The notes below the pieces were generated by a model. That model did not search any database and was not told the DNA's origin. It worked only from the letters and a program-made list of their open reading frames with translations. Positions 6,201-63,041 of a stretch of 64,000 nucleotides of DNA are shown here, in pieces. Where the stretch lies: contig OX597833.1 in assembly GCA_951406725.2 (NCBI GenBank), positions 70,184,001 through 70,248,000 on the forward strand. The letters are read 5' to 3'. Within the stretch, counting starts at the first letter, position 1. Every line of letters starts with the position of its first letter. The position numbers were made by a program, and so were the translations under genes. The stretch is from Octopus vulgaris (Eukaryota).

Positions 6201-9200
6201 ATTGAATATCACGTGATCACGTGACCGACCAGACCATCAGATGTTGCTACACATCGCTGGTCACAATGCGCTTCGCATTGTTTTTTAGCCTTCGAATGAC
6301 GCCACCCCGCTGGCTAAGCGAGCAGGCCAACAGAAGAAAGAGTGAGAGGAGGAGTGGTGAAAGAGTACAGCAGGAATCACCACCCCCTGCCGGAGCCTCG
6401 TGGAGCTCTTTAGGTGTTTTCGCTGTTTTAGGTGTCTGGGAATCGAAACCGCGATCCTACGACCGCGAGTCCGCTGTACTAACCACTGGGCCATTGCGCC
6501 TCCACAACGTTGAATATAGTGATGAATAATGCAGTGAGTGGACGCAGTGTATTAGCGCTAGAAATGACTCCCAGCAAGTATCTTATTGGAAGTTGAAACC
6601 GGGGAATGAAATCGAGATAGTAAAATTACTTTTGAAAAGTAATTAACCTTTAATCCATCGAACAAAGGTTACAGCGTTTTAGCAGGTATTTGTCGAAATG
6701 GCGATAAATATCGAAAACCTCTGCTCTGACATTTAAATAGTCTACGGATTTGTTAAAGTTGTTGAATTTGAAGCTATTATAGAAAACTGAAAGAGTCTCA
6801 GACTAAAATATGCAGGAAAATATTGTTTAATAAAGAAATAGACTATTTTTTGAAACACTTACAGGATTACTTCGTCCTTTCCGTTGTTGTAGCTGTATAG
6901 CAATTGGTGTCAACTCATCTTCGTAATCCAGCATAAACAATGCAATGGGAACACAGACCTGGAATATAAAAATATTAAAATAATACACGCACAGACGTAC
7001 GCTCGCATGCGCGCGCACATACACACATATACATACATATCGCCATGATAGATCGTTAGCCACTACACACATCTTTTTCTTTCCTTGTTTCTCTCCTTGT
7101 TTTTTCTGTGTCCCTTTCTGTAGAAGAGCGTAGGCTCGAAACGTAAAAGACTTTTTCTTTTCCTGCGCGTTATACTAATACACCTGTTTGTTTTGTACAC
7201 CACCTGTCTTCGTCTTTTGTTTTGTTTTTTGTAAACTCTCCCTATATATATGTGTGTGTATGTGTGTGTCTTTGTGTTTGTATGTTTATATACACTTGCA
7301 CATCAATGCATACACATGCACATATATACATATATATGTGTGTGTACATGTGTGTACATGTGTGTGTATGTGTATGTGTGTGTCTGTGTGTGTAGATATA
7401 CAAATATATAGATATGCATAAGCATATATATATAGATATGCATCACGGACTTTCCCGTCGTTAGATAACGTATGAGGGTTCGGTGATTTCATGCCGAACA
7501 ATCTCACAGGTGATTCGTTTATAGTGATCAAATGTTTGTGTTCACATAAGCCCACTCCCTCCGTCAAACTGACATTACCTGTACAGGTGCACCATATATA
7601 GGCTGTTCCGTTGATCGGATCAACTGAAGCACGCATCGTGAACCTGACTTTTTCAGGCTTTGGATTGATGTAGGGTTCATTCAAAGCCTGAAAGAGATGA
7701 GATCCCGTTTGGAGCCTGCGAAACTTAAAGTAGCACGAAACCGAACCAAGCTGTTTTAAGTAACACGTGTAACTCTTACTAAATGTGTTCATTGCCCTTT
7801 CATTCGTTCGTCTGCTTTCAGAATGTCGTCCATTTTGGTCACCTACGTTTGTGTGTGTGCGTGTGTGTATACGCATGTATATCTGGCAGAAACGTTAGCG
7901 CGCCGGGCGAAATGCTTAGCGGTATTTCGTCTGCCGTTACGTTGTGAGTTCAAATTCCGCCGAGGTCGACTTTGCCTTTCATCCTTTCAGGGTCGATAAA
8001 ACTAAGTACCAGTTACGCACTGGAGTCGATGTAATCGACTTAATACCTATGTCTGTCCTTGTTTGTCCCCTCTGTGTTTAGCCCCCTGTGGGTAGTAAAG
8101 AAATATATATCTGTTTCTTTATTGCCCACAAGGGGCTAAACACAGAGGGGACAAACAAGGACAGACAAACGGATTAAGTCGATTACATCGACCCCAGTGC
8201 GTAACTGGTACTTAATTTATCGATCCCGAAAGGATGAAAGGCAAAGTCGACCTCGGCGGAATTTGAACTCAGAACGCAACGACAGACGCAATACCGCTAA
8301 GCATTTCGCCCGGTGTGCTAACGTTTCTGCCAGCTCGCGGCTGTATATGCATGTATATCTGTGTATGTGTGAGTGTATGCGTGTTAGCATGTGTATCTGT
8401 TTATGAGTGTATGTGTGTATGCATGTGTATCTTTGTATGTGTGTTTATATGTGTATGCATACATATATAAGGCGGCGAGCTGGCAGAAACGTTAGCACGC
8501 CGGGCGAAATGCGTAGCCGTATTTCGTCTGCCGTTACGTTCTGAGTTCAAATTCCGCCGAGGTCCACTTTGCCTTTCATTCTTTCGGGGTCGATTAAATA
8601 AGTACCAGTTACGCACTGGGCTCGATGTAATCGACTTAATCCGTGTGTCTGTCCTTGTTTATCCCCTCTGTTTTTAGCCCCTTGTGGGCAGTAATATATG
8701 TGTGTATATGTATATCTGTGAATGTGTGTATACATGTGCACCAATGTGTGTGCGTGTGTGTATGTGTGTGTGTGTGTGTGTGTGTGTCTGTATGCGTGTA
8801 TGTAACTTACATCAAATCCTTGTTTGTGGCCAATGCCTTCCAAAATTTCTAAGTCTGCGTAAAACAGTCGTTTCTTTTCGATTAGTCCTTCCAATGTTTC
8901 TCCATCCAGAACTGGTTTCATCATCTCCTCATCCACTGCAAGTCTACAAGAAGCAAGAAATAAAATGAGGGAAAAGGAATCAGAGGAATTTGTTGACTGC
9001 CTGCATTTGCAAAAACCCTTATGAAGTAAAGTTGATGGAATTTAGATAAATTCAAATGTCGCAGAGAGAAAGGATCTTTGAGAAAAGTCTTTGAGTCAAA
9101 GAGAACCAAAACGATTTCTTTCTCTCGCTGAAGATAACGATTCGCTTATAGAAACGTTCGTTTTCCATCTCCCCATAATACACACACACACACACATACA

Positions 9201-63041: not shown

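Follow-up and report, generated by a model that had tools for sequence, protein, structure and literature searches.

Two families of short (TA)n-anchored elements with minimal hammerhead motifs in Octopus vulgaris: probable solo terminal repeats of Penelope-like elements

Six dispersed elements of Octopus vulgaris carry minimal hammerhead motifs and belong to two families, A and B. With a probability of roughly two in three, both families represent solo pseudo-LTR units of Penelope-like elements (PLEs) that were copied into TA microsatellites and whose minimal hammerhead would cleave slowly, and only as a dimer. The link to PLEs is drawn from the ribozyme type, the (TA)n ends and the 3' end of the elements 95–108 nt past the predicted cut. 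The departure of the core from CUGANGA in five of the six copies argues against this assignment. In its favor, the same DNA contains further TA-anchored elements with head-to-head inverted copies and other types of hammerhead.

Genomic setting

The stretch analyzed here (the window, 64,000 nucleotides of contig OX597833.1) is animal DNA rich in microsatellites and repeats. It contains two head-to-head PLAT-lipoxygenase paralogues, gene 1 at 3492-13906 (- strand) and gene 2 at 41666-63044 (+ strand). Their first exons are about 54% and about 83–84% identical, respectively, to an O. bimaculoides protein. For the first exon of gene 2, the next nearest protein is that of Argonauta hians with 59% identity (2 hits among 182 candidates). 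Two of the six copies are intronic, and the remaining four lie between the first coding exons of the two lipoxygenase genes. The copies and their motifs are as follows.

7036..7242, + strand: copy A1 of family A, 207 bp, antisense to lipoxygenase gene 1 and within one of its introns
7114..7149, + strand: motif of A1 with helix I CUUU/AAAG, U6 (7121), N7 (7122), helix II GAGC/GCUC and ACGU; helix I extendable by GU/AC beyond a 2-nt bulge (7112-7113); predicted cut after 7145
34507..34705, + strand: copy A2 of family A, 199 bp; helix II of its motif (34574-34609) contains a G.G mismatch
60279..60487, + strand: copy A3 of family A, 209 bp, sense to lipoxygenase gene 2 and within one of its introns; motif 60361-60396; flanked by (TA)n at both ends
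33683..33892, + strand: copy B1 of family B, 210 bp; motif 33754-33788 with canonical CUGACGA and damaged helix I; non-repetitive 5' flank
35608..35766, + strand: copy B2 of family B, 5'-truncated; motif 35633-35667 with C4
40247..40452, - strand: copy B3 of family B, 206 bp; motif 40348-40382 with C4; (TA)n on both sides

Six minimal hammerhead motifs

All six motifs named in a preliminary description of this DNA were confirmed, with C3 at 7118, 34578, 60365, 33758, 35637 and 40378 (- strand). A strict descriptor matched five of them and no other site in the window, compared with 0.1 matches per window in 30 dinucleotide shuffles, and a looser one matched all six plus a weak site at 36041 (- strand); both descriptors were composed when the motifs were already known. 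In helices I and II, 46 of 48 cells pair (95.8%), and sliding the partners by 1–3 columns reduces this to 19–50%. Helix I accounts for 23 pairs in 24 cells, its single mismatch being located in B1. The extra base 9.1, the G10.1-C11.1 pair and GAAA are present in all six motifs. Helix III is reduced to the palindrome ACGU throughout, as originally described, and is followed by A or U at the cut.

Some features of the preliminary description apply to part of the copies. The family B helix I, given as guuu/aaac, does not extend to B1, where the 3' arm is AUAU rather than AAAC (one U.U mismatch, one G.U), and the GAGC/GCUC helix II does not extend to A2 with its G.G mismatch. The common downstream sequence ttcctgagcgt is exact in four of six copies. 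Between the families, helix I covaries at only one pair, which is C-G in A and G-C in B; this single event is reached by 25 of 500 shuffles, and no covariation was seen in helix II across the six copies.

The canonical CUGANGA core occurs in B1 alone, whereas U6 is found in all A copies and C4 in B2 and B3. U4C was proposed as a fixed variant, but with C4 in two of three B copies its fixation is not supported. Since U4 of B1 sits at a CpG, it may have arisen by CpG decay of C4, or it may be the older state. Apart from the core, the motifs match the published PLE consensus and can be classified as minimal type-I hammerheads of the PLE kind.

Rfam returned no hammerhead match for the two copies scanned at E<=10; for the whole window, the matches listed (150 of 262) included no hammerhead and consisted of low-complexity miRNA-type noise. 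The folding energy of the monomer is no better than that of shuffles for five motifs, and the sixth folds into another structure. For all six motifs, the predicted hammerhead dimer differs from the minimum-energy homodimer.

Element ends and insertion sites

The elements are 199–210 bp long with the motif mid-way, except for the 5'-truncated B2 (159 bp), and the copies of one family are 88–95% alike. Their 3' halves are not traversed by an ATG-led open frame, in keeping with the earlier view of non-coding elements. A (TA)>=3 run begins at most 1 nt from the 3' end in all six copies, against a background of 1.2% of window positions. In the five untruncated copies the 5' end is located 71–86 nt upstream of C3. 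A3, B3 and the truncated B2 have (TA)n immediately at this end; two other copies have mixed CA/TG repeats as 5' flank, and B1 (33683) has non-repetitive DNA. Hence, the suggested preference for (TA)n holds for every 3' junction but for only half of the 5' junctions.

The two families were also thought to be related outside the ribozyme. The 3' halves support this, with four of six pairs reaching p<0.05, whereas neither the 5' halves nor the 30-nt heads do (0 of 12, p 0.07–0.71). Since the 5' ends are not significantly alike, a start site shared by A and B is only a guess.

Six-base mirrors were observed at the 5' junctions of B2 (35576-35613, across a TA run) and B1 (33671-33688). In B2, the mirror is formed by the first 6 nt of the copy and the 6 nt to the left of the (TA)13 run. 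These mirrors possibly result from fold-back synthesis during insertion, but they could also be due to chance. They are all that the 5' ends of A and B have in the way of inverted 5'-truncated copies, clear inversions being seen in the neighbouring families C, D and E. At A2, the (TA)n on the 3' side borders on an inverted SINE-like repeat, namely on its 5' half.

The window holds all six copies singly, with no tandem or partial-tandem (two pseudo-LTR) arrangement, and none of the six begins at the predicted cut. Nor was a PLE RT or GIY-YIG domain found in the 131 frames scanned out of 194 non-repetitive frames of at least 70 aa in the window.

These observations bear on two other origins. The elements might be scattered monomers of tandem non-LTR retrozymes, with master arrays located elsewhere and small circular RNAs as the means of spreading. 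A unit of about 200 bp falls within the retrozyme range of 170–400 nt (PMC7229834), and retrozyme families, proposed to be pLTR-derived, can consist mostly of monomers (10.64898/2026.07.22.740005). However, the absence of tandem copies and of a canonical helix III in the window does not fit the retrozyme status raised in the preliminary description. The motif is minimal here, while retrozymes have been defined on canonical type-I motifs (PMC7229834), and fixed ends about 100 nt on either side of the cut are unlike the remnant of a cleaved monomer. We regard this origin as quite improbable.

Alternatively, A and B could be SINE-like repeats moved by a LINE partner, with the captured hammerhead as a passenger. 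Fixed ends, an apparently high density (3 per 64 kb for each family) and the abundance of LINE-like and SINE-like repeats in the window would agree with mobilization of this kind. Against it, no tRNA-like head was found: ARAGORN predicts no tRNA gene in the whole window, although decayed heads can escape this program. In addition, A and B show no similarity to the other repeats of the window, and the part best kept across subfamilies is the motif and not the ends. A LINE-driven origin is therefore very improbable, and solo PLE repeats remain our preferred interpretation.

If the window were typical of a 2.8-Gb genome, 3 copies per 64 kb would extrapolate to about 130,000 copies per family (27,000–380,000). 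In line with an animal repeat, scans of prokaryotic, viral and metagenome collections for the exact patterns of the A and B motifs gave no matches.

Variation of family A in public reads and contigs

Variation was assessed for family A only, by mapping four public runs to copy A1: one raw DNA run and three contig sets with 4788, 474 and 359 records, which are tentatively taken to be RNA. The mapping excluded 6960-7041 and 7233-7285, i.e. the element ends and head-to-tail joints. From the raw DNA run, 5 of 12,895,792 reads matched A1 (2 starts), all with canonical A6; because so few reads matched, this run is uninformative on abundance or copy number.

In the contig sets U6 is kept in about 99% of the family A depth. 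Canonical A6 occurs in 14, 3 and 1 contigs, and the change from U6 to A makes up 0.1, 1.2 and 0.8% of the summed contig depth. The assumption that U6 is a family-wide property of A is thus borne out. With CpG sites set aside, 30 positions of the 36-nt motif remain, and just two of them, N7 and H17, vary by at least 2% in the three sets. N7 is non-A in 54, 33 and 29%, with C, G and U all occurring. H17 changes from A to U in 20, 14 and 4%, and from A to G in less than 2%. No variation of 2% or more was detected at C3, U4, G5, G8, A9, A13 and A14. N7 and H17 are the two degenerate positions of the canonical hammerhead core. The chance that both variable sites fall among the 6 free positions of the 30 is 0.034, and that they are exactly N7 and H17 among 12 core positions is 0.015; these values come from a test framed after the table was known, reflect few subfamily-level events or source lineages, and use summed unitig depth, which is not equal to copy number.

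Selection on the hammerhead fold would be expected to leave such a pattern, with variation at N7 and H17 and U6 kept. As a caveat, loop 2 and base 9.1 hardly vary although they too should be free to do so. Taken together, the sequences hint that the U6 core of family A may be a slow but working hammerhead variant.

Outside the core, the bulge next to helix I is variable (20–32% at 7112, 9–18% at 7113), whereas the GU/AC pairs beyond it are maintained apart from one 6% change in one run. This suggests a bulged helix I of 6 bp in family A. Four CpG sites, including G12 and 15.2/16.2, vary by 2–21%, as is expected of decaying copies. The summed depth is highest on the motif, with loose ends at 7103-7113 and 7152-7158. 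Such loose ends on either side of the motif point to subfamilies that carry it in other flanks. Among the 20 of 174 loose ends listed, none enters a recognizable coding body.

An origin from PLEs could also be combined with a dead ribozyme, the U6 (and C4) motif persisting as a folded handle that serves the PLE protein or RNA dimerization. A handle would require neither a canonical core, missing in five of six copies, nor copies that start at the cut. Furthermore, insertion in vitro did not need cleavage (PMC11167929), and eight of nine predicted Xenopus dimers were without cleavage (10.64898/2026.07.22.740005). The mode of variation speaks against a dead ribozyme, since H17 goes to U and hardly to G and the seven invariant core bases listed above are all retained. 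Moreover, natural cores of low activity still cleave or support infectivity: for an A6C variant kobs is <0.1 per min, and a U4C core has lowered activity but is sufficient for viroid infectivity (PMC3088659). Loss of the catalytic function is thus unlikely.

A further proposal is that U6 was fixed because CUG-UAG forms a 3' splice acceptor after a pyrimidine tract, comparable to the intron of Drosophila virilis Penelope. A pyrimidine tract followed by UAG is indeed present in all three A copies, and Penelope has a 75-bp intron ending at helix I (PMC4209133, PMC2377424). We rejected this explanation, since no other base of the motif varies as much as the A of UAG (N7), and the sole joint listed is one contig with CA..AC ends.

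Proposed mode of propagation

For solo PLE repeats the following sequence of events can be envisaged. A Penelope-type RT/endonuclease is presumably encoded elsewhere in the genome. By analogy with the Anolis PLE, its GIY-YIG endonuclease would nick (TA)n, and the RT would start in the RNA about 100 nt past the ribozyme, which would set the 3' end. In Anolis the RT starts 85–92 nt past the ribozyme cut (cut at +26, RT start 111–118 nt into the ORF), the protein makes its nicks in AT-rich DNA, uncleaved RNA is the main substrate, and the ribozyme cleaves only with the protein (PMC11167929). The RT would then copy uncleaved RNA as far as the RNA's 5' terminus, which is probably a start site within the repeat, and thereby set the element's 5' end. 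A transcript start inside the repeat, at 371, is described for D. virilis Penelope, with an intron (416-491) just before the ribozyme (PMC2377424). The resulting units of about 200 bp could spread in a SINE-like manner and themselves serve as sources.

Two motifs may pair via ACGU and so complete helix III. Because helix III needs two motifs, lone copies should be nearly inert and tolerated in introns, which is consistent with the sense-strand intronic copy A3. Source copies would be selected for the hammerhead fold even though U6 should lower the rate, and the PLE protein would most likely help.

A bolder version, possible but doubtful in our view, regards family A as a self-propagating SINE-like PLE parasite of about 200 nt, with perhaps 10^4–10^5 copies in octopods and a working U6-core hammerhead. 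In such a parasite every other catalytic base would be kept, and drift would be restricted to N7, H17 and the helix-I bulge. Dimerization, a contact between bulge and loop 2 or the PLE protein might replace the A6 contact, and low cleavage would leave uncleaved RNA for copying.

Further hammerhead families and inverted elements in the window

A permissive hammerhead scan gave 10 matches at score 8 and 3 at score 12; the corresponding numbers in 15 block shuffles were 0.73 and 0.07. The matches at 22129 and 36041 look like chance, and A2 falls below the threshold. Two additional families, C with a U3-A8 core and F of Hydra type, had been missed in the preliminary description.

31209..31373, + strand: copy 1 of family C, hammerhead-like, U3-A8 core with position 3 at 31222; 3' end at (TA)n
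15968..16134, - strand: copy 2 of family C, 95% alike; 26-nt inverted duplication at the 5' end (16079-16154)
32890..32960, + strand: copy 1 of family F, canonical-core motif with 4-bp helix III, C3 at 32897
about 59253-59310: copy 2 of family F, truncated inside helix II of the motif; (TA)n flanks

The family C motif combines a perfect 6-bp helix I with a helix II of only 2 bp and an ACCGGU palindrome, and the two copies begin at an identical position, directly ahead of helix I. The copies of family F have about 30 nt after the cut in common; their 4-bp helix III resembles the motifs tabulated for Hydra-clade PLEs (PMC8557442).

Family D (32533-32791 and 62181-62336) comprises TA-anchored elements of about 150 bp, one of which is a perfect head-to-head inversion with 113-nt arms. 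Its motif is degenerate and of U3-A8 type, with GCAA/ACAA replacing GAAA, and its status is uncertain. TA-flanked head-to-head inversions are also present at 52752-53034 and 61861-61990 (135-nt arms, 99%; 63-nt arms, 87%). They are possibly termini of further PLE families, and hammerhead scans of the two revealed no ribozyme motif. Inverted 5'-truncated copies are a described signature of PLEs (PMC8557442).

Repeats of other kinds occur at 14676-15226, 29866-30232, 23732-24673 and 7999-8218. They comprise 184-bp SINE-like 3'-part tandems, a 242-bp inverted-end tandem and a tail-to-tail SINE-like pair, and no hammerhead motif was found in them. Between (AAT)n repeats, the segment 44460-44960 contains the 3' fragment of a LINE-like ORF, presumably the endonuclease end of a Dong/R4 element.

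Implications

Hammerheads of this class are already well described and common in animals, so that the novelty here is a modest core variant. A family-wide U6 together with hammerhead-like tolerated variation nevertheless provides a natural test of what PLE hammerheads are retained for, cleavage or service as a handle for protein or dimer. Counts of cephalopod ribozymes are probably too low, because descriptors demanding CUGANGA as well as Rfam miss the A and B motifs; the 64-kb window alone holds at least four hammerhead motif families. Finally, the fixed ends are compatible with SINE-like PLE derivatives arising by internal RT initiation.

Comparison with known systems

In the literature, as far as covered by the listings searched, no natural U6 core and no octopus A or B motif was found, and for octopus hammerheads nothing relevant appeared apart from PMC8557442; Lunse et al. 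2017 may already describe such cores, and repeat libraries may contain the families. According to PMC13282606, 30 Penelope families have recently been active in O. vulgaris. A and B are not classified as PLEs proper, since neither an ORF nor a partial tandem was seen in the window, and not as retrozymes, since the window holds no tandems. Family A is treated as a variant because its core is not canonical.

The closest resemblance is to the minimal hammerheads of PLE pseudo-LTRs (Cervera & De la Pena 2014, PMC4209133). Their metazoan consensus has a U-rich flank, a helix I of 3–5 bp, base 9.1, the G10.1-C11.1 pair and a palindromic 15.2-16.2. The A and B motifs are alike in the short helix I, base 9.1, G10.1-C11.1, ACGU for helix III, the U-rich flank and the occurrence as mostly single, dispersed motifs. 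Judged by eye, the nearest printed motif is that of Acropora digitifera Neptune (Fig. S3/Table S1 of PMC4209133). All 56 motifs of Fig. S3, none of them from a cephalopod, have U4 and A6, as the descriptor used there demanded a canonical core, whereas position 6 is U in family A and position 4 is C in two B copies. A further difference from these PLEs is that no adjoining ORF was found at A or B in the window.

With Poseidon PAc of Anolis carolinensis (Frangieh et al. 2024, PMC11167929), A and B have AT-rich targets in common. The insertion 3' end is likewise about 90–100 nt past the ribozyme cut, and PAc copies uncleaved RNA. The ORF of PAc begins in helix II, in contrast to the 3' half of A and B, which has no ATG-led frame.

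The octopus elements Hydra-1_Obim and Naiad_Obim/Ovul/Omin (Craig et al. 2021, PMC8557442) come from the same host group and have the same target as A and B: (TA)n is listed as the target of Hydra-1_Obim and the Naiads and is also linked to Neptune. As in A and B, the ribozyme of Hydra elements lies about 100–200 nt from the 3' end. Their motifs have a helix III of 3–4 bp, like family F and unlike A and B. The motif of Hydra-1_Obim is a sequence other than A or B, and the Naiads are described there as lacking canonical motifs.

Animal non-LTR retrozymes (Cervera & De la Pena 2020, PMC7229834; Li et al. 2026, 10.64898/2026.07.22.740005) are likewise non-coding, 150–400 nt long and equipped with a type-I hammerhead. 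They are defined by tandem arrays and circular RNA, whereas A and B are known here as single copies. In the same two reports retrozymes are proposed to be PLE-dependent and derived from pLTRs.
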